Assembly: GCA_946409305.1 (NCBI GenBank)
Contig: CAMJVU010000002.1
Coordinates: 451 to 64,450, forward strand
Source of the DNA: an uncultured Cytophagales bacterium
GTDB lineage: Bacteria > Bacteroidota > Bacteroidia > Cytophagales > Amoebophilaceae
Direction of reading: 5' to 3'
DNA: 64,000 bases
The number at the start of each line of letters is the position of its first letter. Within the stretch, counting starts at the first letter, position 1. Below, one piece after another: positions 1 through 48,928 of this stretch. The position numbers and the translations under genes were made by a program. Under the pieces are notes generated by a model. That model was not told the DNA's origin and did not search any database. It saw nothing but the letters and a program-made list of their open reading frames with translations.

Positions 1-1086
1 AACACTTTCCAATAAAGTACCAACCAACATGAAACCAACCAACGTATATTCATCAATGTTGTTAGCATCAACATACGTATACCCAAAACAGTGGTATATA
101 TACGGATCATATATCATAAAAATCGCAATATAACTAAGAATGACGAACTTTAATAGCATCGAGACGTAAGACAACAATGTATGTCTGTGTATTTTATGAG
201 CGAATTCATGCCCCATCACTGCTACAATCTCATCGACAGTAAGTTCATTTAAAAGTGTATCAAACAGGACTAATTTCGTTGGACCGAACGGGACACTCAA
301 GCAAAAAGCATTCCCCTTTTTTGATCTTCTACTACCATCCATAACATAAACATTTTCCAATTTTATATTAAAATTCGTCGCCAGATCTGTTAACTTAGAC
401 TTCAATTCTCCATCATCCAATGGAGAAAACTTATTAAACATTGGCATTATAAAATATGCCGACATAATCTGTAAGAACCACACAATTAAAAACAATCCCA
501 AGATAAAGTACAATACGGTATAGAAGTTTAACCTCCCGAGGTAATCTAACCCAACACTAACTGCAAATATAACAAAACCATTTACAGTCATTCCTACTAA
601 TAATCCCTTAACTGTGTCAGTCATCATAAGCCCATTTGTCATTGTACTATATCCAAATCTTTTTTCTATTTTATCTGACAGAATTTTAAAAGGGAACATA
701 ACGATACTAGAAAATAATGCCACCACGACCATAGAACTCCAAATCCCTACAGGTACAGTAAAATCTAATCGACATACGTATTCAATTATTGTTGGACTTA
801 ATCCAATTATCAAAAAACACGTACCCATCGTCGTAGATATTCCAGAAGCAAAGTATGAAAAGATAGATTTAATTCTGTTGTATGACAACAAACTACCAAA
901 CTTATTTTCGTCAAACTCCGTCTCCAATATTGGATGTGCCGATTTTAAATCTTCTACCAGTTTGTCCGCATCTAATAACAAATCATTTGAACAATTTATA
1001 TATCCCTCAATGATACGCCTCAAGAAATTTCCAACAAAAACTACAATAATAACCCAACTCGAAAAGTCTACAATGTGATTAAACAT
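1..1086 (-). CDS. M48-family zinc metallopeptidase, Ste24 / CAAX-prenyl-protease type (C-terminus beyond window edge)
   Basis: Absent from the ORF track because it stays open to position 1. Hand translation of the minus strand from the ATG at 1086-1084 gives MFNHIVDFSSWVIIVVFVGNFL... It has several hydrophobic helices, KRFGYSTMTNGLMMTDTVKG (Ste24 N-domain wording), NAFCLSVPFGPTKLVLFDTLL and the HExxH site VAVMGHEFAHKIHRH. The listed + ORF 614..1078 is its antisense shadow. Confidence 0.8.
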   Translation of the reverse strand, partial: MFNHIVDFSSWVIIVVFVGNFLRRIIEGYINCSNDLLLDADKLVEDLKSAHPILETEFDENKFGSLLSYNRIKSIFSYFASGISTTMGTCFLIIGLSPTIIEYVCRLDFTVPVGIWSSMVVVALFSSIVMFPFKILSDKIEKRFGYSTMTNGLMMTDTVKGLLVGMTVNGFVIFAVSVGLDYLGRLNFYTVLYFILGLFLIVWFLQIMSAYFIMPMFNKFSPLDDGELKSKLTDLATNFNIKLENVYVMDGSRRSKKGNAFCLSVPFGPTKLVLFDTLLNELTVDEIVAVMGHEFAHKIHRHTLLSYVSMLLKFVILSYIAIFMIYDPYIYHCFGYTYVDANNIDEYTLVGFMLVGTLLESV

Positions 1087-1234
1087 AAAAATATTTACTT
1101 ATAATTTACTACACCACACAATAACTAATTTTAAGAATTAATCACCACTTCTGTAAATAAGATCTAATCGATCACAAAACCGACCAACCAAAACCACGAG
1201 TACCACGAGGTAAAAACACAATAACGGAACAAAA

Positions 1235-1685
1235 CTACCAACAGCCACACCCTTTTCCCCTGGTAACAATCCGTCTTGGTTTCTCATCTAGTCGAATACC
1301 TCTACCACCCTCAGAATCTTTTTTACTTTCATTCTTACGGTAAATAAAATAAATCGTAACACTAGAATACTTACCACCACTACAAAAATTCAACAATAGA
1401 TCTTCATTTTCTGGCCTTTTCCCTTTAATTGGAACAGCTTCTAAACAGTCGGGGGACAATGAAAACTCCTCTGCAAAATCATTTCTTATCTTTTTAAAAG
1501 TAGTTCCGAGAGGGTATCTCCTATCCCGCATAACCCCACTATCATGTTCACACACGCACGGTTATCACATTATTTAAGATTTTTAAATCATCATCCAAAT
1601 CAGAATCCATATTTCCGTAAGTAACAACTAATCCGTATGTTACCAACACTACACAAACGAAATGCCATATTTTATTTGCCTTCAT
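1235..1685 (-). pseudogene. Split member of the MK(T/A)NK-leader small lipoprotein family (leader ORF 1548..1685 plus body ORF 1235..1555 in the next frame)
   Basis: An unlisted 45-codon ORF runs from the ATG at 1685: MKANKIWHFVCVVLVTYGLVVTYGNMDSDLDDDLKILNNVITVRV, ending at TGA 1548-1550. It overlaps track ORF 1235..1555, which is shifted by one nucleotide. The junction lies in the GT-rich tract GTGCGTGTGTG (plus strand 1549-1559). The lipobox Cys of the other family members is Tyr here. Confidence 0.55.
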
Positions 1686-1704
1686 AATCATAACTCCTAC
1701 ATCC
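1605..1704 (-). repeat. Conserved 5' cassette, copy D (upstream leader plus signal-peptide codons)
   Basis: GGATGTAGGAGTTATGATT-ATGAAGGCAAATAAAATATGGCATTTCGTTTGTGTAGTGTTGGTAACATACGGATTAGTTGTTACTTACGGAAATATG aligns by eye with the copies at 3903-4009, 26853-26958 and 35014-35120. Confidence 0.7.
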
Positions 1705-3130
1705 CTCGTATCACATCAAAAGTCAAAGTATCGCCATCACTTATTACATGCTTTACATCATCAAAATCTTTCAAATCATCTAAAGAAGGACTAGAAGCAT
1801 AGTTCAGAATAACTCCATTTAAATAAAAAAGGTTATAATGACATTTACCAACCAGCTCTGGTTTCTTGTTAATAAGAGTCCAATAGAGAACATCCAACAA
1901 TGATTGTTTCCTACTTGTTTTTATACCGTTAAAGTTATATACATCTTCTGACCCCTGAACTCGAACTTTGACGTTTATCTCTACATTCTCTCCTTCATTT
2001 TTACTAGCCAATGTCTGAAGAGCCTCAGGATTCAAACGATAAGTGACATTATTACATTCTGGAACAACGTTGTAAACACTTTTCTCGAGATAATCACCAA
2101 CATTTTGACACGTATAAAACAGAATGTAAGGAGAACCCACAACATTACAACAATCCCACTCTTGTACAATTTTATCATTATATAAGAACCACTTACTACA
2201 TTTCTCGTTATAAACGTACGCAACATAATGACCACCTCCTTTTTCAAAAGAAACAAAAGAAGATAATTTGTAAGTATATCTCTGGAGGTTTACCATTCCA
2301 AATTTGTTCACGTCAAACTTGTTTCCATTTATTATATCACCCGCACTAACATTAACGATCATAACTGGAGCAAATTGATTCAAACCATTATTAAACGGGT
2401 TAGAAAGATCAAGTCCAACTGGGAGCCATCCCAAAAAGCTTTGGATAAGAAGTCTTAAATGATCATTAAACGTATAAAAAAGATTTTCGATAACGTTCAC
2501 GTTATTATTCCCTAATTCTGACGACAATACATTAACAATGTGACTCAAAAGTTTACACGAATCAGCGGGAGCAAAATGACAAAAAGGATTATCCTCGACA
2601 TTATTCTTTCGACCAGTAGTCATAGGAATCTCACCCACAAGATTCTTAAATAAATCAGCACTGAAAATATCCTCACCATCGTTAATCCACAAATTGTAAA
2701 AAACATCAAATAACTGTTTCGTCAAAGTATTATTCGACATTCTCTCAAAAACATCTTGATACCTAATAAAATAATTTCCCAATGCAGGTAAATTACACAA
2801 ACACTGCAATACAGCATTCATATAGCACGTAGCACCAAAATTCTTCAAACCCTTCGTAAAGAATCTTGTATTACCATCATCACTGAATAACCTTTCACGT
2901 GACTTATTTTCTTGTTCCTTTGCCAATCTCTGAATTAAATTTAGATTATTTCCACCTCCACTCTGCTTAACAACATCACTCGAATTGTTTCCACCTTCAC
3001 TCCGATTAACGGTATTATTCCCCAACAGAGGATCGGTACCAACATCCTGTGAACAACAACAAAGACCAAAATAAGAGCAACCGACACATAAGCATGCCCC
3101 CAAAACAGCACACTTCACCAACATCTTCAT
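1697..3130 (-). CDS. USP/UCH-type (peptidase C19) deubiquitinase-like cysteine protease with N-terminal signal/lipobox-like anchor
   Basis: 477 aa. N-terminus MKMLVKCAVLGACLCVGCSYF. Cys box GLKNFGATCYMNAVLQCL. His box GGGHYVAYVYNEKCSKWFLYNDKIV. Confidence 0.85.
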   Translation of the reverse strand: MKMLVKCAVLGACLCVGCSYFGLCCCSQDVGTDPLLGNNTVNRSEGGNNSSDVVKQSGGGNNLNLIQRLAKEQENKSRERLFSDDGNTRFFTKGLKNFGATCYMNAVLQCLCNLPALGNYFIRYQDVFERMSNNTLTKQLFDVFYNLWINDGEDIFSADLFKNLVGEIPMTTGRKNNVEDNPFCHFAPADSCKLLSHIVNVLSSELGNNNVNVIENLFYTFNDHLRLLIQSFLGWLPVGLDLSNPFNNGLNQFAPVMIVNVSAGDIINGNKFDVNKFGMVNLQRYTYKLSSFVSFEKGGGHYVAYVYNEKCSKWFLYNDKIVQEWDCCNVVGSPYILFYTCQNVGDYLEKSVYNVVPECNNVTYRLNPEALQTLASKNEGENVEINVKVRVQGSEDVYNFNGIKTSRKQSLLDVLYWTLINKKPELVGKCHYNLFYLNGVILNYASSPSLDDLKDFDDVKHVISDGDTLTFDVIRGM

Positions 3131-3178
3131 ACTTTATAACAACAAACTAATATAAGAAAGCAAAAATAGCAAAACTTA

Positions 3179-3705
3179 TTACTTAAAAATTTTTCTAATT
3201 TCCTCAAATTTATTCTCGACAAGACCAATGTAATGAACCATTTTCTCTGAGCCTGGAACAAAATCACTTTCCTTAATCGTTTCACCACAACTACAAGAGA
3301 ACATAGCGCTTCCAATGTACGTGTCTATATGAATTCCTTTAATGTATTTAGAATAAGCATCCAAATCCGTCTTAATACCCCCCCCTTTACGTTCTCATCA
3401 TTATATGTCTGGACAGAATCCATGACTGCTTCATTATACCAATTATTAAATGTAAATTCCCTCCGCCCATACTTCGAACGTATTACTATCTCCGCAGGAA
3501 TAAAATTCTCCACACCTCTACTATCGCGAACCACACTACTAAAATTTTCCCCATCATTCGACGAAGAATTTTCCAAACAACAGTTACAAACAAAAACAGT
3601 CAGTAACATCGTGACCACTAATCCCGTGAAATTATAATAAACATAAAAACAACACACAACGATTAATGAAAACAAGAATTTAAAAACCCAACCACAAGAC
3701 CTCAA
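3179..3705 (-). pseudogene. Membrane-anchored hypothetical protein split by a G8 homopolymer (phase-variable gene or fresh pseudogene)
   Basis: Track ORFs 3325..3705 and 3179..3364 overlap in different frames, and the frame change coincides with the C8/G8 run at 3378-3385. G9 or G6 would give one ORF of about 175 aa. Confidence 0.7.
3378..3385. repeat. Homopolymer C8 (G8 on the coding strand) at a frameshift point
   Basis: Read directly: cttaataCCCCCCCCtttac. Confidence 0.95.
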
Positions 3706-3821
3706 ATAACGAGATAAAAAAAATCAACACCCAGTCGTACCAACCCGACCAGGGGCACTAATACAATAAAAAACTAGTGTTAGTTCGAATTCTGTGTGTT
3801 ATTACCTTGTGTATTAGGCCC

Positions 3822-3983
3822 TTAACACAAAATACAAGGGCATCTACTATCACTCTCCGGATTCTGATCCAAAGTATTATCACTATCAGTATCAATATCA
3901 TTATACATATTCCCACAAGCAACAACTAATCCGTATGTTGCCAACACTCCACAAATGAAGTGCCCTATTTTATTTGTCTTCAT
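3822..3983 (-). CDS. Small (53 aa) acidic lipoprotein, MKTNK-leader family, C-terminus CPCILC
   Basis: The internal ATG at 3983 of track ORF 3822..4097 gives MKTNKIGHFICGVLATYGLVVACGNMYNDIDTDSDNTLDQNPESDSRCPCILC. The lipobox is LVVAC. The track N-terminal extension is upstream leader read through. Confidence 0.7.
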   Translation of the reverse strand: MKTNKIGHFICGVLATYGLVVACGNMYNDIDTDSDNTLDQNPESDSRCPCILC

Positions 3984-4009
3984 AATTGTAACTTCTAAAA
4001 CCACGATAA
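3903..4009 (-). repeat. Conserved 5' cassette, copy A
   Basis: TTATCGTGGTTTTAGAAGTTACAATT-ATGAAGACAAATAAAATAGGGCACTTCATTTGTGGAGTGTTGGCAACATACGGATTAGTTGTTGCTTGTGGGAATATG. It differs from copy C at about 9 of 78 coding positions by hand alignment. Confidence 0.75.
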
Positions 4010-4192
4010 ATAAATACAAATAAAATACAAAAATCCGCTCAACTGATACCGGCACTCTTGGTGATTCACCGCTAATACCAAACATTTCACAACACATTAC
4101 AGTTTAAAGGATAACACCACTACTAATATCTTCTGTTCAAACCACATCGACGTTAACACACTCAGAAACGGACAAATAATTAGAATTAGTAC

Positions 4193-9429: not shown

Positions 9430-10011
9430 TCATTTATCATTTAGTTTCTTATCAAAAAAGACAAAAAATATAGCACCAAATATTATGCACAAGTCTGCTA
9501 CATTAAATATTGGAAGATGATGCACCCCTCCAAAAATTGGGAACCACTCCGGCAATATATTAATTGGTTCTGTACTAAAGCATAACATGTCTATCACCTG
9601 TCCATTAAACAACTTCATAGGAGCATAACTAGGAGCATTCCCTAACAATACACCGTAGAATATTATATCTATGCAATTACCAATTGCTCCACCCAATATC
9701 AATCCCGCTCCATACATTCTCAACCTCCTGTACAAGTATTGAGTAGAGTCGTAAAAAACTTTTTTAACCACATAATAAATCAGCGCAAAACGCAACAACA
9801 AAAGTATTAATTTCCAATGTTCCCATTCAAACACATGTCCCATGCAAATTCCTGGATTAGTTACGTAATAAAAGTGTACAAGACCCATATCCCTTAACTC
9901 CCCCAGCTTCATGTTAAAATGAACCCACAATTTGACGTACTGATCCAATATTACCGAACAGAAACACAGACAAATAACTAAAAATTTATCACGTCTTGAC
10001 ATCTCGCCCAT
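9430..10011 (-). CDS. lspA: Lipoprotein signal peptidase (SPase II)
   Basis: Four TM segments, with GGAIGNCIDIIFYG and FNVADLCIIFGAIFFVF matching the conserved LspA Asp-containing motifs. Confidence 0.85.
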   Translation of the reverse strand: MGEMSRRDKFLVICLCFCSVILDQYVKLWVHFNMKLGELRDMGLVHFYYVTNPGICMGHVFEWEHWKLILLLLRFALIYYVVKKVFYDSTQYLYRRLRMYGAGLILGGAIGNCIDIIFYGVLLGNAPSYAPMKLFNGQVIDMLCFSTEPINILPEWFPIFGGVHHLPIFNVADLCIIFGAIFFVFFDKKLNDK

Positions 10012-10076
10012 ATTGTCTTTATAATGTCCATGTTTTATTGTAACATCAAAATAGAATCAATAACTAAATATCTAGT

Positions 10077-11117
10077 ATGTTCGATTTTCATAAAATATTA
10101 GGTTATTTTTACAACGACTTGGCAATAGACTTAGGAACAGCGAATATTGTTATTATTCGAGACGATAAGATTATCGTTGAGGAACCATCAATAATCTCTT
10201 TTGATGATAATGGCAGAATTTTGGCAGTTGGTAATGAAGCATTGTTAATGAATGGGAAAACGCACAAAAACATAAATGTAGTAAAACCACTAAAAGATGG
10301 AGTTATTGCCGATTTTAAAGCAGCAGGACAAATGATAGACGCTTTTATAAAAGGCGCACGAAATGATCATTTTTTACCTTTCAAATCATTCTTAAATAAC
10401 GTTGTTATCGGCGTTCCATCAGGCATAACTGACGTAGAACGTAGAGCTGTTAAAGATTTTGCAGATAGTCTTGGTGCAAGTAATACGTACACGATCTATG
10501 AACCAGTAGCTTCAATTATTGGGGCGGGTATAGATGTTTTCGACTGTAATGCATCGATGATAGTGGATATTGGTGGTGGAACAACAGAAATTGCGATTAT
10601 TATTTTGGGTGGAATGGTCTGTTATAAATCAATAAAAGTTGCAGGAAACCAATTTACCCATGATATCATTAATTACTTACAACGTAATTACGGCGTATTA
10701 GTTGGTGAAAATACCGCTGAAAACATAAAAAAAAACACTAATGTAGTAGATTGTGACCAATTAGAAGAAATGGAAGGTATTTCAATATGCGGTAGAGATA
10801 CGCTATCTGGAATTCCAAAAGAAGTATGTATTAGTTACGACGATGTAGCTTCTGCCCTTAATGATTCTATTTGTTTGGTAGAGACGGCCATTTTAGATAC
10901 ATTAAAAGTCGCCCCTCCAGAAATTTCTTCTGACTTAAATAAGAATGGAATTATTTTATCCGGGGGAGGATCCTTGCTAAGAAATTTAGATAAAAGAATA
11001 GAAGAAAAGACAAAATTGAAAGTGCGCATATCGGATGATCCATTAAGGGGCGTAGCAAGAGGAATAGGGAAAGTCATCAAAAACATGAATCTTTACAAAG
11101 GTATATTGATGAGATAA
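10077..11117 (+). CDS. mreB: Rod-shape-determining actin homologue MreB
   Basis: DLAIDLGTANIVI, VIGVPSGITDVERRAV, IVDIGGGTTEIAII and GIILSGGGSLLRNLDKRI. Confidence 0.95.
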   Translation: MFDFHKILGYFYNDLAIDLGTANIVIIRDDKIIVEEPSIISFDDNGRILAVGNEALLMNGKTHKNINVVKPLKDGVIADFKAAGQMIDAFIKGARNDHFLPFKSFLNNVVIGVPSGITDVERRAVKDFADSLGASNTYTIYEPVASIIGAGIDVFDCNASMIVDIGGGTTEIAIIILGGMVCYKSIKVAGNQFTHDIINYLQRNYGVLVGENTAENIKKNTNVVDCDQLEEMEGISICGRDTLSGIPKEVCISYDDVASALNDSICLVETAILDTLKVAPPEISSDLNKNGIILSGGGSLLRNLDKRIEEKTKLKVRISDDPLRGVARGIGKVIKNMNLYKGILMR

Positions 11118-13307: not shown

Positions 13308-14270
13308 TCAACACTGGTTTTTTTCAATACGTTGTAAAGTTTTTATTATCTCATCCAGCGACGGCCTGTTTTTGTCGTATTTTGCCAACATAGATGTTAA
13401 TAAATTCTTTAATTCACTTGTTGACATTCCTCTAATATTTTTATCGTATTCAGCATTAAAGACTCCCCTTACTTTTAAAATTTTTCCCAAATATCTCTTT
13501 TTGTTTCCCAAAGACGCCACCAGGTTCGTTAAGTTATTTAAACTATATCTCCCAAAACCCTCCATTTCATCAATAAACACCATTTTGTACAATACTAACC
13601 CCAAACACCAAATATCATACTTGAATGGATCATAACCAGTACCTTTTACTAAACCATTAGCTACATCGAACGAATAATTTCTAAATGTTCCACGTTGCGC
13701 ACTCGACTTACCATCATTACATAAAAGCATTGATCCAAAATCGATTATTTTTACATTATTATTTTTATCAAACATTATATTGCTTGGTTTTAAATCCAAA
13801 TGAGCTATACGCTTCTTATGCAAATCACTAATAATCTTAACGATTTGTAAAAAATGATTAGATAACCTACGTGGATTATTTGAATAAAATCCCCTATTGA
13901 TCCTATCTTTTAACGTACACACACACCTTTCCATGATTTCATATCTTTTGCCATCATAGTCTACAACATTTTGTATTTTTGCAACGCCAGGCACCTGCTT
14001 TAATGTATTTATACTATCGTAGAACGTATCGTTATCTTCTTCTCCTACTTTCAAAACAAAATTATCATTCAATGTGTACACAGAGCCATTAAAACCACTA
14101 CCGATACGCTTTATTTCGTCCGGGTTACAGTTTATTCCAACATTACATTGATCTAACATCTTTACGATTTCCCGTTTTCTGAATACATCAAGAAAATTAC
14201 ACAAACTTACCTGAACAAGACTTACCTGGATAAGTATGAATTCGAACAAAACAGAGACGTAACCCCTCAT
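13308..14270 (-). CDS. Eukaryotic-like (Hanks-type) Ser/Thr protein kinase with N-terminal hydrophobic segment
   Basis: G-loop IGSGFNGSVY, catalytic loop IAHLDLKPSNIMF, KIIDFGS (DFG) and subdomain IX DIWCLGLVLY. Confidence 0.85.
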   Translation of the reverse strand: MRGYVSVLFEFILIQVSLVQVSLCNFLDVFRKREIVKMLDQCNVGINCNPDEIKRIGSGFNGSVYTLNDNFVLKVGEEDNDTFYDSINTLKQVPGVAKIQNVVDYDGKRYEIMERCVCTLKDRINRGFYSNNPRRLSNHFLQIVKIISDLHKKRIAHLDLKPSNIMFDKNNNVKIIDFGSMLLCNDGKSSAQRGTFRNYSFDVANGLVKGTGYDPFKYDIWCLGLVLYKMVFIDEMEGFGRYSLNNLTNLVASLGNKKRYLGKILKVRGVFNAEYDKNIRGMSTSELKNLLTSMLAKYDKNRPSLDEIIKTLQRIEKNQC

Positions 14271-25223: not shown

Positions 25224-26660
25224 GTGTACACATATTGTATGTTTGGGTTTCGATGTTACGATATGTGGAATGTTTTTAAGAAAGACGTGCTTTATAGATT
25301 CTTTGCTGTGCGTAATGGTGGTGTTTTACTGTGCGTGTTATTTAGTGGAGTTTCTTGTTATCCTCCTAAACTGAGTGAAACGTCAGGTAGTGAAATGTCG
25401 GGTGATAAGGTGCCGTATAAAGGTGACGAATACCAAAAGGTGTTAAAAGAGGACTATGGATACAAGGATAGTGAGAAACTGGAATTTTTACCTGTGAATA
25501 ATGTAAAGAAACCATATGTGACCGATGTTCTTAAGGATTATGTTAAACCTACGATGGTAGGATTGGAAAATGTGGGAGCGACTTGTTTTATGAATGCAAC
25601 TTTGCAGTGTTTGAGTCAGACTGAAAGGTTGGTTAGATATTTTTTAGATAAAAAAAACGAAGAAAGGATAAATAACAACAATATTACTATGAAAAAGAAC
25701 GAGGAATGTCAGTTGTCTCCTTCATTTCTTGAGGTTATCAAAGGACTGTGGAATAAGGATTGTAAATCTGGATATTATGATCCTAGCAGTTTCAGGGATC
25801 TTGTTGAAAAAATGAATCCGTTGTTTGAGAAGGGGAAAGCGGGTGATCCTAAGGATTTTATTATATTTATACTTGAACAGTTACACAAGGAGTTGAGTAA
25901 GAATGTTGCAGCTACCTGCGATGAATACAATAAAATGATACGACCGAATAAATTTTTCAATCAATATGACAAGAAAAGTGCATTTTCTTACTTTTTTGAA
26001 AATTTTACAAAAAACTGTTCGATAGTAACGGATACCTTTTTTGGAACTACTGAGACGATGCGTCAGTGTGTAAATTGCAAATTGATTTGCTACAATTATG
26101 AGGTTTTTAATTGCCTCATTTTTCCTTTGGATGAAGTAAGGAAGTTTGTGAACAATATGTCTATGAATAATATGAACAACATGTTTATGCCTATGAATGG
26201 AAATAGAGTTAGTCTACGTGATTGTTTCTTGTATAATGGAAAGACAGAATTGTTCTGTGGAGAAGATCAGAATTATTGTAATCGTTGTAAGGGTTTGCAT
26301 AATTCGGGATATACTTCCAGGATATATACAGAACCAAATGTTCTAGTTTTAATACTTAATAGAGGTAAGGGGAATATTTATAATGTTGGTTTGGATTTTG
26401 GTGAGTCTTTGGATATAACGGATTTTGTTGTGAACAAAAATGGAAGAAAAGTTTATGAATTGTATGGGGTTGTTACCCACTTTAAAGGAAACGATCCTAA
26501 GGGACTTGATTCTCATTTTATGGCATCTTGCAAGAATCCTATTGATAATGAGTGGTACAAATATAACGACAATAGTGTTACTAAAGTTAAAAATGTTCAA
26601 AGAGATGTTATAGAATTTGGAACTCCTTATATATTGTTTTACAAGAAAAGAGAAAAATAA
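25224..26660 (+). CDS. USP/UCH-type (C19) deubiquitinase-like protease, second copy, with N-terminal hydrophobic anchor
   Basis: Cys box GLENVGATCFMNATLQCL, a CxxC pair (CVNCKL...CNRCKG) in the finger region, and His box DSHFMASCKNPIDNEWYKYNDNSV. The start is uncertain (GTG 25224, ATG 25239 or ATG 25263). Confidence 0.85.
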   Translation: MYTYCMFGFRCYDMWNVFKKDVLYRFFAVRNGGVLLCVLFSGVSCYPPKLSETSGSEMSGDKVPYKGDEYQKVLKEDYGYKDSEKLEFLPVNNVKKPYVTDVLKDYVKPTMVGLENVGATCFMNATLQCLSQTERLVRYFLDKKNEERINNNNITMKKNEECQLSPSFLEVIKGLWNKDCKSGYYDPSSFRDLVEKMNPLFEKGKAGDPKDFIIFILEQLHKELSKNVAATCDEYNKMIRPNKFFNQYDKKSAFSYFFENFTKNCSIVTDTFFGTTETMRQCVNCKLICYNYEVFNCLIFPLDEVRKFVNNMSMNNMNNMFMPMNGNRVSLRDCFLYNGKTELFCGEDQNYCNRCKGLHNSGYTSRIYTEPNVLVLILNRGKGNIYNVGLDFGESLDITDFVVNKNGRKVYELYGVVTHFKGNDPKGLDSHFMASCKNPIDNEWYKYNDNSVTKVKNVQRDVIEFGTPYILFYKKREK

Positions 26661-26852
26661 CGATATATCTGTAATTTTCCTTTGTAATATCGAAGTGGTA
26701 TCATGTTTTTTATCTTTGTTTGTTATTGTGAGGGTTGGTGTTTTTTTCGTAAGGTATTTTTGATTTCTGTGATCATTTAAATCTGTAACGTTTTAAACGT
26801 AAGTATTTTTTATTTTTCTTTTAACAATATTTGGTTTTATTTATTTATTTAT

Positions 26853-26958
26853 TTATTGTGGTTGTAGAAATTGCAATTATGAAGACAAATAAAATGTTAC
26901 ACTTCGTTTGTGGAGTGTTAGTAGCACAAGGTATTGTGGTTACTTGCGTGAATGGATG
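26853..26958 (+). repeat. Conserved 5' cassette, copy B
   Basis: TTATTGTGGTTGTAGAAATTGCAATT-ATGAAGACAAATAAAATGTTACACTTCGTTTGTGGAGTGTTAGTAGCACAAGGTATTGTGGTTACTTGCGTGAATGG. Confidence 0.75.
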
Positions 26959-40650: not shown

Positions 40651-41427
40651 CTACATCTGATTCATACTTTTACTTTTACTTTTACTTTTACTTTTACTTT
40701 TACTTTTTTTTCGTGGTAAATCGATGTCAATCTTCACATCAAAAGTTCCCTCAAATAGCCATGTTCTACCAAAGAAAAATTCCAATGATGTAAAAGCTGA
40801 AAAACCTAAATTTTCCCATTTCCCTTTTATTAAACTTCCTACGTCAATTGTTCCCCAATTAATTCCCCAAGTAAAACTAGTTGGAGAAACACTTTCAAAA
40901 ATAGTAAGTTTCAAATTCATTCCTACCTTTTTAGGGTTGCATTCAAATTGTGAATTAACTAACACATCATCTGCGACACTCAACCACATCAGATTAATTG
41001 TCAACCTTCCTAAATAGCATTTCCTATCAACATAATCATTATTTCCTTCATTATTGTAACTCCAACAAATTCCCCACCCAAATTGAAACAACGGAACACT
41101 ATTCTTATCAAAACCAAAAGGAACATAAAAGTCCCCAATTAAAGTAAAACTACTGACCCATCCTCTCCGTTTAGTAACCCAATATTTGTGTAAGATGTTA
41201 ATTTTGAAAATGTATAATATTTGTGGAGGCATTTTGATGTTTGTACCACAAAATGCATCAACAGGGGCCATAAGTAAATTAAACGGAGTTGGCCCTGCGG
41301 TTATAGACAAAGATCCAAAATCTTTTTTTTTCGAATATTTACCTAGTCTTTTATGTCCTTCCTTGCTACTGTAACTATTTTGGATATTCATGTTTAAGAC
41401 AGCAACAATGATAAAAAACAACTTCAT
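40651..41427 (-). CDS. Small beta-barrel OMP-like protein, family member P3, with C-terminal (KS)7 tail
   Basis: Family motifs LSITAGP, FQFGWGICWSYNNEG...RKCYLGRLTINLMWLS, GMNLKLTIFE, WGINWGTIDVG and FFFGRTW, then KKSKSKSKSKSKSKS. Confidence 0.75.
   Translation of the reverse strand: MKLFFIIVAVLNMNIQNSYSSKEGHKRLGKYSKKKDFGSLSITAGPTPFNLLMAPVDAFCGTNIKMPPQILYIFKINILHKYWVTKRRGWVSSFTLIGDFYVPFGFDKNSVPLFQFGWGICWSYNNEGNNDYVDRKCYLGRLTINLMWLSVADDVLVNSQFECNPKKVGMNLKLTIFESVSPTSFTWGINWGTIDVGSLIKGKWENLGFSAFTSLEFFFGRTWLFEGTFDVKIDIDLPRKKSKSKSKSKSKSKSMNQM
40666..40707. repeat. Hexanucleotide microsatellite (ACTTTT)x7, coding (KS)7 on the minus strand
   Basis: Read directly; seven perfect units followed by a T run. 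Confidence 0.95.
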
Positions 41428-46981: not shown

Positions 46982-47884
46982 ATGAAGTTTGGAGTGTTTT
47001 TATTGCCTGTTTTATTCTGGTGTGGGTGGTATTGTCAAGAAGGCGAAAATGATGTACAACGAAATGAGAATTTAGATAAGAGAGAAAGTAGCCGTATAAG
47101 GGAGGATTGTCACACAGGAAGAAATGTTGATCCGATGGTTTCTCTTGTCGAGTACCTCAATGAAGGAAAATATGGGGAAATTTGGCGTGAGGGTACTGAT
47201 TTGAGACAATGCCTTGATCCGTTGATCGAAGAATTTAGGGGAATGTCTACTAAAAAAAGAACTGAGTTACTAGGTGATTTTGGAGTTATACTATTAGACA
47301 TTGATAGGTCTTTTGGGCGTAAAGTTCTTAATGTTAATGAGTATCTAAAGTCTTTATTAAATATTCTTTTTGATTTTTCTATAAGAGAAGGGAACGGATA
47401 TTCCCAGGGATATAATTATGTAGCGGTGGAGTGTTTGATTCAACGTAAAAATGATTACAATGAGAGTAAAAAATTGTTTTTTGATGTAATGACTAAGTTG
47501 AAAATAAAGTGTTTAGGTTACGAAGGTAATTACATCGGTTTATTTAAAAAATTTATAAAAGATAATTCTTTTAGAGGTCTTGTTTTAGTTGCTATCAGGG
47601 AAAAAGCAGATAAAACTTTTTTCGATAAGGAGTTTGAAGATTTATGGATCGGCGGGTTTTTGCAAGGATTATTATTCAGTTTTTTTAGTAGATCCCTTGA
47701 TTCCGGGAACTCATGGAAACGCATATTGTTATGTTTAGAAAAAGGAGAATGTTTTGACGTGTTTAATGAGTTTTGTTTAGCTTTGGATTATGTTTTAACA
47801 TGTGTTCGTGATAAATGTGGAAATGGGGGGAAGGTGGATTTTTATGTTGTGCATGATATTGTGAAAAAATATCTTAATGGTTAG
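46982..47884 (+). CDS. TBC-domain (RabGAP)-like protein with signal peptide
   Basis: MKFGVFLLPVLFWCGWYC, then VILLDIDRSFGRK (IxxDxxR arginine-finger motif) and, about 30 aa later, GNGYSQGYNYVAVECLI (YxQG glutamine-finger motif). Confidence 0.65.
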   Translation: MKFGVFLLPVLFWCGWYCQEGENDVQRNENLDKRESSRIREDCHTGRNVDPMVSLVEYLNEGKYGEIWREGTDLRQCLDPLIEEFRGMSTKKRTELLGDFGVILLDIDRSFGRKVLNVNEYLKSLLNILFDFSIREGNGYSQGYNYVAVECLIQRKNDYNESKKLFFDVMTKLKIKCLGYEGNYIGLFKKFIKDNSFRGLVLVAIREKADKTFFDKEFEDLWIGGFLQGLLFSFFSRSLDSGNSWKRILLCLEKGECFDVFNEFCLALDYVLTCVRDKCGNGGKVDFYVVHDIVKKYLNG

Positions 47885-48019: not shown

Positions 48020-48928
48020 GTGATTATGTTTAAATCTGATATCCTCGAAAGTTTTGATTTTGAGTTTAAAAAATATCTCCTATACAGTGGAAAATTCGTT
48101 AAAAATACACGTCAAGAGTTTTTAACACAGATACGTAAGGAATTTGATGTAAAAGATGGTTCTGTTTCTTATAGCAGGTGCCATTCTGTGAGTTATTTGT
48201 CTATCGTTGAATCTGTTGTGAAAGTTTTTAACTTGATTTGTTCAGCAAAAAATTGTGAAATTAACATTACCTACGATGATAGTGTTGCTATCGCTTTAAG
48301 GTATTTATCAGGATTGGTTCTTGCTGTTAAGAAAAGTCCGTTACTTATTTCAGATGACTATAAGTCTATGTCTGTTAATAATATTTACAACAGAATATTG
48401 GAGTCTGACAATATTGAAGATGCATTTGTAGAATACGCTATATCTAAAAATCTCGTTCTAAAATTGATTTTTAGATTGTTACGTAACCCAAACGATAAAG
48501 ATTTTGTTGAACATTTGTTGGATTACGGGAACATATTAATTGAAAAACTAAACAATTGTCATATGAATTTAAGAGTTGGTCCTGCAAAATATAATTCAGA
48601 AGTCCGTGAGTATTACGATATCATAAGTTTTGAGAGTTGTGAAAATGGAATTATTATCGATAATGAGATGGATTGTTGTGCTCTTTCTCACATAAAACAT
48701 CTAATGTATCCACTTGAAGATAATATAAAATTTTTAGCTCCTAGATCGGTGAACCTTCCCGATATGTATAAAAGGAATGGAGAATACGAGATTATGACCA
48801 GCTTCCAAAAGTGTGATGGGAAAATTAAAATGACAGGAGAAAAAGTTAATGATAAAAACTTTTATATCAGAGATTGGTACACAAAAGGTAAAGACCTAAT
48901 CATTTTTCAGAGTCATGAATATTCGTGA
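48020..48928 (+). CDS. Hypothetical protein, no signal peptide, no recognisable domain
   Basis: 302-aa ORF on the same strand, 136 nt after the TBC-like gene. The start context GGGTGATT-ATG resembles other accessory genes. Confidence 0.5.
   Translation: MIMFKSDILESFDFEFKKYLLYSGKFVKNTRQEFLTQIRKEFDVKDGSVSYSRCHSVSYLSIVESVVKVFNLICSAKNCEINITYDDSVAIALRYLSGLVLAVKKSPLLISDDYKSMSVNNIYNRILESDNIEDAFVEYAISKNLVLKLIFRLLRNPNDKDFVEHLLDYGNILIEKLNNCHMNLRVGPAKYNSEVREYYDIISFESCENGIIIDNEMDCCALSHIKHLMYPLEDNIKFLAPRSVNLPDMYKRNGEYEIMTSFQKCDGKIKMTGEKVNDKNFYIRDWYTKGKDLIIFQSHEYS

Follow-up and report, generated by a model that had tools for sequence, protein, structure and literature searches.

A strain-specific G8 tract at a frameshift in an effector-associated orphan gene of a probable rumen-ciliate endosymbiont: candidate null allele and candidate contingency locus

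The closest described counterparts of the locus reported here are the poly-G/C contingency loci of Neisseria, Haemophilus and Campylobacter, with which it has in common an intragenic G/C homopolymer that sets the reading frame, a tract length that is polymorphic between strains and a product that is probably surface-exposed or host-facing (PMC5084427). While in Neisseria-type loci the tracts are typically at least 8 nt long in most strains and come in many ON and OFF lengths, 11 of the 12 alleles of the present gene carry a 6-nt tract and a G8 is found in one strain.

Another point of reference is provided by the null alleles of Listeria monocytogenes inlA (A7 to A6; PMC2831843), where, as in the present case, a host-interaction gene is hit by a homopolymer indel, null alleles recur and reversion is possible but secondary. 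The inlA tract, however, is a 5'-proximal poly(A) with measured reversion frequencies, whereas the tract considered here is a mid-gene poly(G), and the second null allele of the gene lies at another site. The poly(A) frameshifts of Buchnera (cited in PMC2831843) resemble the present case in that the genome is small, AT-rich and probably obligately intracellular, with slippage indels as a main route of gene inactivation. In Buchnera, though, A tracts in decaying housekeeping genes are affected, in contrast to a G tract and accessory effector-like genes under positive selection in this case.

With respect to the organism, the 64-kb stretch of DNA that was analysed (the window) has a GC content of about 32%, its relatives come from rumen samples, and among its genes are eukaryote-like ones, namely two USP genes, a Ser/Thr kinase gene and a RabGAP-like ORF; no rRNA was found in the 64 kb. 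Comparison of the EF-G of L002 with the PDB gave best hits in gammaproteobacteria, which says little about the lineage, since Bacteroidota EF-G is lacking from the PDB. For Amoebophilaceae that live inside rumen ciliates, 'Ca. Cillophilus ruminis' MAG-392 and the MAG CAMJVU01, a preprint gives genomes of 0.53-0.6 Mb, a GC content of 32-33% and eukaryote-like proteins, a RabGAP/TBC protein among them (bioRxiv 10.1101/2025.07.29.667580, 2025). Set beside the effector repertoires of Amoebophilaceae ('Ca. Amoebophilus asiaticus', MAG-392, CAMJVU01), the window is alike in its rumen origin, its GC content of about 32% and its RabGAP/TBC-like protein, and these circumstantial matches suggest that it probably stems from such an endosymbiont of rumen ciliates. 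Tract polymorphism, strain-level knock-outs of effectors and positive selection are not part of the preprint on MAG-392 and CAMJVU01 (bioRxiv 10.1101/2025.07.29.667580).

The split gene and its product

The tract is a run of eight G on the minus strand, equivalent to C8 on the plus strand at positions 3378-3385, and the frame is lost exactly there. The minus strand reads ...AAT GAT GAG AAC GTA AAG GGG GGG GTA TTA AGA CGG..., the run falling into codons 75-77 of a gene of 142 codons. From the ATG at 3609, the frame runs through the tract to a premature stop 17 codons further on, at 3325-3327, and this 5' part of the gene (3325-3609, minus strand) specifies a G8-allele product of 94 aa, which is present as an exact copy in the protein collection (P0010). 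The 3' part (3179-3377, minus strand), read in the shifted frame (IKTDLDAYSKY...EEIRKIFK, stop), is stop-free and nearly identical to the intact alleles. Mapping of tract length onto reading frame assigns G6, G9 and G12 to the ON state and G4, G5, G7, G8, G10 and G11 to the OFF state; by this map, a change of tract length would toggle expression through the reading frame, in the way known for an SSR-mediated phase-variable locus.

A sequence-only reading of this DNA had located the G8 exactly at the frameshift, with 17 further codons before the stop, and had proposed that G6 or G9 would join two split ORFs into one. Reading of the minus strand from ATG 3609 and the tract-length map bear out both points, G12 being a further restoring length, and the two ORFs are indeed parts of one gene, as indicated by an intact orthologue of 142 aa with 95% identity. 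When 5.8 billion proteins were searched with the sequence in its repaired form, one cluster was retrieved, which this orthologue (P0001) represents; its uninterrupted gene lies on L002, a contig from a rumen metagenome with 98.9% identity to positions 1-3987 of the window. Altogether the gene is present on 11 rumen metagenome contigs (L002-L012) with 95-99% identity, which derive from about 11 mostly cattle-rumen assemblies and comprise five haplotypes (six with the window), while the 90%-identity protein cluster has nine members in a collection of 15 billion proteins. The comparison sequences are all metagenome consensus contigs, in which minority tract lengths are hidden. Searches of metagenome contigs with the DNA pattern flanking the tract and with protein P0009 gave no match and no further alleles, and searches of genome contigs with P0009 and PNPase gave no match.

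Judged by its sequence, the target protein appears to be an orphan. It matched no Pfam family, its gene has no paralogue within the 64-kb window, and a HMMER search with P0001 against 1.84 billion representatives returned only the truncated product of the window and two repeat proteins. Of the latter, P0020 is of low complexity and P0021 carries a Listeria-Bacteroides-repeat-like motif (GYAFGGWY); both were judged spurious or too weak to count as homologues. The AlphaFold2 single-sequence model of the protein was unusable (pLDDT 32).

On unbroken relatives, most gene calls give a product of about 142-148 aa, the shorter form starting at the ATG that matches 3609 and the longer one at another ATG, 18 nt before it; one call is longer still (P0008, 182 aa). 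The upstream ATG opens an N-terminus (MRLVVTMLLTVFVC...) that reads as a lipoprotein-type signal peptide. In the window this ATG is changed to ACG, a change in common with the intact L002 allele. The larger product of about 175 aa with an N-terminal membrane anchor, which the sequence-only reading had put forward, depends on a start at TTG 3705. This start was rejected because a terminator-like hairpin with a T8 (3716-3753, minus strand), which ends the preceding small gene, directly adjoins it upstream and because the gene calls of the relatives mostly begin downstream of it. The T8 of the terminator is polymorphic among strains, with T7 as the alternative.

The small gene upstream (3822-3983, minus strand; MKTNKIGHFICGVLATYGLVVAC...) is lipoprotein-like and a member of a repeated leader family. 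A module of about 100 bp, consisting of upstream sequence and the lipoprotein-type leader, is found at four places of the window (3897-4016, 1608-1704, 26845-26946 and 35012-35117), where it stands at the head of various small or Cys-rich genes. Among the metagenome contigs it marks breakpoints and changes of partner: the end of L001 falls inside it, and in L002 it is linked to fusA and not to pnp. The module is a hot spot of recombination or, alternatively, a place at which assemblies become chimeric. The leader family also has a 47-aa copy at 1548-1691 (minus strand), whose lipobox has Tyr in place of Cys (VVTYGN) and which shows a 2-bp indel against L010 at about position 1643; this copy is probably a decaying paralogue.

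Tract length and null alleles among relatives

Alignment of the 12 alleles (window and 11 contigs) at the DNA level uncovered a G6 (AAA-GGGGGG-TATT) in 10 contigs, which represent four haplotypes, and a TG5 (AAA-TGGGGG-TATT) in L002. The G8 is restricted to the window, and in all 11 relatives the tract is 6 nt long and the frame is intact at the tract, with this length constant between haplotypes that differ by 3-17 amino acids. The tract lengths observed in these consensus contigs are two, 6 nt and 8 nt. The alignment indicates that a 6-nt, in-frame tract is the ancestral and prevailing state and, as all 11 relatives possess it, that the G8 of the window would be a unique, one-off derived expansion by two nucleotides. 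A long tract of about 7-8 G/C or more, the length given for phase-variable loci (PMC5084427), is not the normal state of this locus. The 'classic architecture' of slipped-strand switching that the G8 had called to mind finds no support among the relatives, since their 6 nt lie below the usual instability length of poly-G and since neither G7 nor G9 products occur among the nine cluster members.

Five of the 11 relatives (L002 and L007-L010) have the gene intact, with products of 142-182 aa against which the 94 aa of the window represent a disrupted ORF, as expected of a recent null allele. The other contigs (L003, L004, L005, L006, L011 and L012), from six assemblies and of one haplotype, have a 2-bp TA deletion (ACATA[TA]ATG) 20 nt upstream of the tract, which splits the gene into pieces of 68-74 aa and 84-90 aa. 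As the G8 and the TA deletion are different lesions, the alignment argues that the gene was inactivated at least two times, independently. No additional stops are found in the 3' half of the window allele, in a single lineage with few changes on which to estimate constraint, and lacking further lesions in this half, a reversible OFF state and a very young pseudogene look the same.

Frameshifting micro-indels between close strains occur only in orphan or effector-like genes, and only one of the four is located in a long homopolymer. An orphan ORF of 106 aa (1235-1555, minus strand), located in one island with the target gene, is intact in the window and in L002, with a coding-strand C5 at 1451-1455, in place of which L003, L004 and L010 have C4 and no full-length gene call; a 98-aa product of this ORF is called on L006. 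In L015, a 2-bp TG deletion at 47801 shortens the product of the RabGAP-TBC-like ORF (46982-47884, plus strand) to 276 aa. Because of the TA deletion and the 1-2-bp frameshifts in effector-like genes of sister strains, ordinary recurrent loss of function fits the G8 allele better than a programmed switch, and the fresh pseudogene, which the sequence-only reading had named as an alternative, describes it better, with the relatives at 6 nt and the second null allele at a non-homopolymer site.

Along about 32 kb in common with a near-identical strain of sample ERZ12289768, no A/T homopolymer differs in length, which indicates that both assemblies handled homopolymers consistently; the window contains 240 A/T runs of 6-11 nt. 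Relative to this strain, the window shows an in-frame ACTTTT indel (40702-40707) inside an orphan ORF of 258 aa (40651-41427) and an indel of one TTTA tandem unit (26836-26839).

Diversifying selection and the second G8 tract

Among the six haplotypes, the 429-nt coding sequence of the target gene has 21 segregating sites, all 21 of which are nonsynonymous and none synonymous (p = 0.01 in a binomial test that assumes neutrality and takes 19.5% of sites as synonymous; p = 1e-6 in a Fisher test with the 12:21 ratio of the pnp, SurA-like and MlaD genes as reference). Another coding frame or an antisense gene as the cause of this pattern was rejected, since the five other frames contain 2-24 stops. 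The substitution pattern argues for diversifying selection on the target gene.

Beginning 48 nt past the stop of the target gene, the neighbouring gene (1697-3130, minus strand) has a product of 477 aa with a USP/UCH domain and an N-terminus that is rich in Cys and signal-like. Its product matches Pfam PF00443 (UCH) with E = 5.6e-24 and 85.6 bits (cutoff 23.9) and belongs to Peptidase C19/USP by its Cys-box and His-box (GATCYMNAVLQCL, GGGHYVAYV). The pN/pS of this gene amounts to 1.9-3.4 between clades, with values of 0.07-0.39 for the pnp, SurA-like and MlaD genes alongside, and identity to L003 drops from 98% on the pnp side to 95% in the accessory stretch 1216-3781. These figures suggest that the target gene and the USP gene form an island of the host-interaction type under diversifying selection, not neutral junk. 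USP proteins also occur in Amoebophilus. In its N-terminal G/N/S-rich region, the USP gene at 1697-3130 has in-frame indels of 3 bp and 39 bp.

The only other G/C run of at least 7 nt in the 64 kb is a second G8 (27678-27685, plus strand). The sequence-only reading had recognized it as the sole other 8-nt run and ascribed it to an accessory gene, in agreement with the run listing of the window and with its location in a Cys-rich orphan gene of 327 aa (26879-27862, plus strand), whose leader is of the same family as that of the gene at 3822-3983. This G8 is in frame (TGG GGG GGG, W G G). The corresponding sequence is TTT GGG GGG in L013 and L014 (TT+G6, F G G) and TTT GGG AGG in the more distant L016, which suggests that the second G8 derives from a G6 through a TT-to-GG change that neither adds nor removes nucleotides. 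No OFF state was found at this site among L013, L014 and L016. In the Cys-rich gene, the window is separated from L013, which is 99.3% identical to it, by 25 nonsynonymous and one synonymous difference (pN/pS 5.3). The gene stands out as a hot spot of divergence with 26 of the 63 mismatches to L013 over 11 kb, has many CxxC-like pairs and varies among relatives by large indels that keep the frame and lie in its acidic N-terminal part. Directly upstream is a second USP/UCH-domain gene (25239-26660, plus strand), which is absent from L014; it is distantly related to the USP gene at 1697-3130, and both have signal-like N-termini.

One more G/C run reaches at least 6 nt, a G6 (47825-47830) in the RabGAP-TBC-like ORF, which is identical in L015 and lies 24 nt downstream of the TG deletion of that strain. 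The Pfam match of this ORF (E = 3e-4) is below the gathering score; its copy in L015, a strain of 99.8% identity, is at 10001-10831, and a 300-aa gene of unknown function adjoins it at 48026-48928. Another eukaryote-like gene (13308-14270, minus strand) encodes a Ser/Thr protein kinase (PF00069, E = 5e-28), the 90% cluster of which has members of 282, 319 or 320 aa, which suggests that its start or length varies between strains.

All three G/C runs of at least 6 nt reside in Pfam-less or effector-like genes, a class that makes up about 20% of the window. The two G8/C8 runs compare with a mean expectation of 0.29 in 100 dinucleotide-preserving shuffles of the 64-kb window, six of which had at least two such runs, and runs of at least 6 nt are not enriched in the window. 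The strong improbability initially ascribed to a G8 was consequently overstated. As far as the 64 kb are concerned, the three runs lie in orphan or effector-like genes, the excess of G8 is marginal and the broader class of runs of at least 6 nt shows none. Coding strands are richer in G than in C across the window, with a GC skew that reaches a magnitude of 0.44 and follows gene orientation; owing to this strand bias, runs of G and not of C are found on coding strands.

Readings of the G8 allele and their meaning

We read the G8, with moderate confidence, as a recent, strain-specific null allele that arose by slippage in a high-turnover, effector-associated gene set. A G6 that is otherwise conserved would have been extended to G8 by a +2 slippage in one strain, with the knock-out of an orphan gene of 142-148 aa as the result. 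Steps of +2 are less common in slippage than steps of +1 or -1, which counts against such an origin. Judging by its signal peptide, the deubiquitinase next door, the positive selection and the repeated knock-outs, the product is probably a secreted or surface-exposed host-interaction factor, the loss of which would be tolerated or sometimes favoured. Replication slippage, possibly in the absence of efficient mismatch repair, may keep yielding loss-of-function alleles in the effector-like gene set, and the G8 allele would be one of these. Being longer than G6, the G8 is expected to be more mutable now, and as it has the length at which tracts of N. meningitidis become unstable, reversion to G9, which would restore the full-length protein with one extra glycine, is plausible. 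Nothing in the data speaks for maintained regulatory switching, and reversion would be mechanistically possible.

A true, possibly newly evolved contingency locus, in which the G8 slips often, ON (G9/G6) and OFF (G7/G8) cells coexist and the ciliate host selects between them, is a possible but rather unlikely explanation. From the phase-variable gene that was originally proposed, it can be retained that tract length sets the frame, differs between strains and that the gene is lineage-specific, has a signal peptide, is under diversifying selection and lies by a deubiquitinase gene; the G8 has also the length that is mostly variable within cultures of N. meningitidis (PMC5084427). The strongest hint of an incipient contingency locus is that the only two G8 runs of the 64 kb both derive from G6 and are located in orphan genes that are positively selected and adjoin USP genes, a coincidence that could be expected from selection for mutability or from an artefact specific to G runs, and the gene class in which all runs of at least 6 nt are found points in the same direction. 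These arguments are opposed by a tract that, at 6 nt in 11 of 12 alleles across diverged haplotypes, is evidently stable, by the single OFF length seen, with no G7 or G9 in the cluster, and by the position of the tract mid-gene and not 5'-proximal. The second G8 moreover is in frame with no OFF relative, null alleles in the gene set arise at non-homopolymer sites as well, and the G8 enrichment, found as often in 6 of 100 shuffles, is marginal.

An extension of this idea holds that contingency loci are being born, so that two G6-to-G8 changes in one strain would have created mutable switches for proteins that face the host and partner with effectors of the ubiquitin system, the first being OFF at present and the second ON. 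We consider this improbable; in this view, one G8 would have come about by slippage and the other by a TT-to-GG boundary substitution, in genes that are unrelated to each other and yet both positively selected, secreted, orphan and paired with a USP gene.

Doubtful to a similar degree is a sequencing or consensus artefact, by which the true tract would be G6 or G9 and the draft would have miscalled the lengths or boundaries of G runs. The window apparently is part of a draft metagenome contig of about 65.7 kb, and every comparable G6 run that differs has become a G8 in it, once by insertion and once by TT-to-GG. However, along the roughly 32 kb that can be set against independent contigs (99-99.98% identity), A/T runs up to 11 nt long showed no length discrepancy, exact agreement with L015 extends to the G6 at 47825 and to several G5/C5 runs, and a 2-nt insertion is atypical of short-read chemistry. 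The 94-aa G8 product furthermore is listed for NCBI, ENA and the independently assembled Logan collection, and the TT-to-GG change occurs in a gene that has 25 other nonsynonymous differences to L013. A rescue of expression with the DNA unchanged, finally, is highly improbable. G GGG GGG formally is an X_XXY_YYZ heptamer in the zero frame (G_GGG_GGG), where slipping of the ribosome by -1 would restore the frame as ...K G G G I K T D L..., and transcriptional slippage saves frameshifted Buchnera genes at poly(A) tracts (PMC2831843). However, the 88 nt past the tract have no stable structure (z = 0.18), and no relative is frameshifted at the tract, so that the arrangement is neither conserved nor selected; on these grounds programmed -1 frameshifting was rejected. 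The known cases of rescue, moreover, are long A/T runs and not G8.

Returning to the null allele as the preferred reading, the G8, if real, adds a data point on the strain-to-strain turnover of effector-associated genes in a newly recognised lineage of rumen-ciliate endosymbionts, in which small slippage indels would time and again inactivate genes on which diversifying selection is otherwise strong. If reads showed heterogeneity of the tract, the locus would exemplify homopolymer phase variation in endosymbionts of protists and could illustrate the origin of a switch from a stable G6. The more useful result is the context of the tract, as the island and the Cys-rich gene by the second USP gene have pN/pS values well above 1, which makes the orphan lipoprotein-like and USP genes and the Cys-rich gene candidates for direct host-symbiont conflict.
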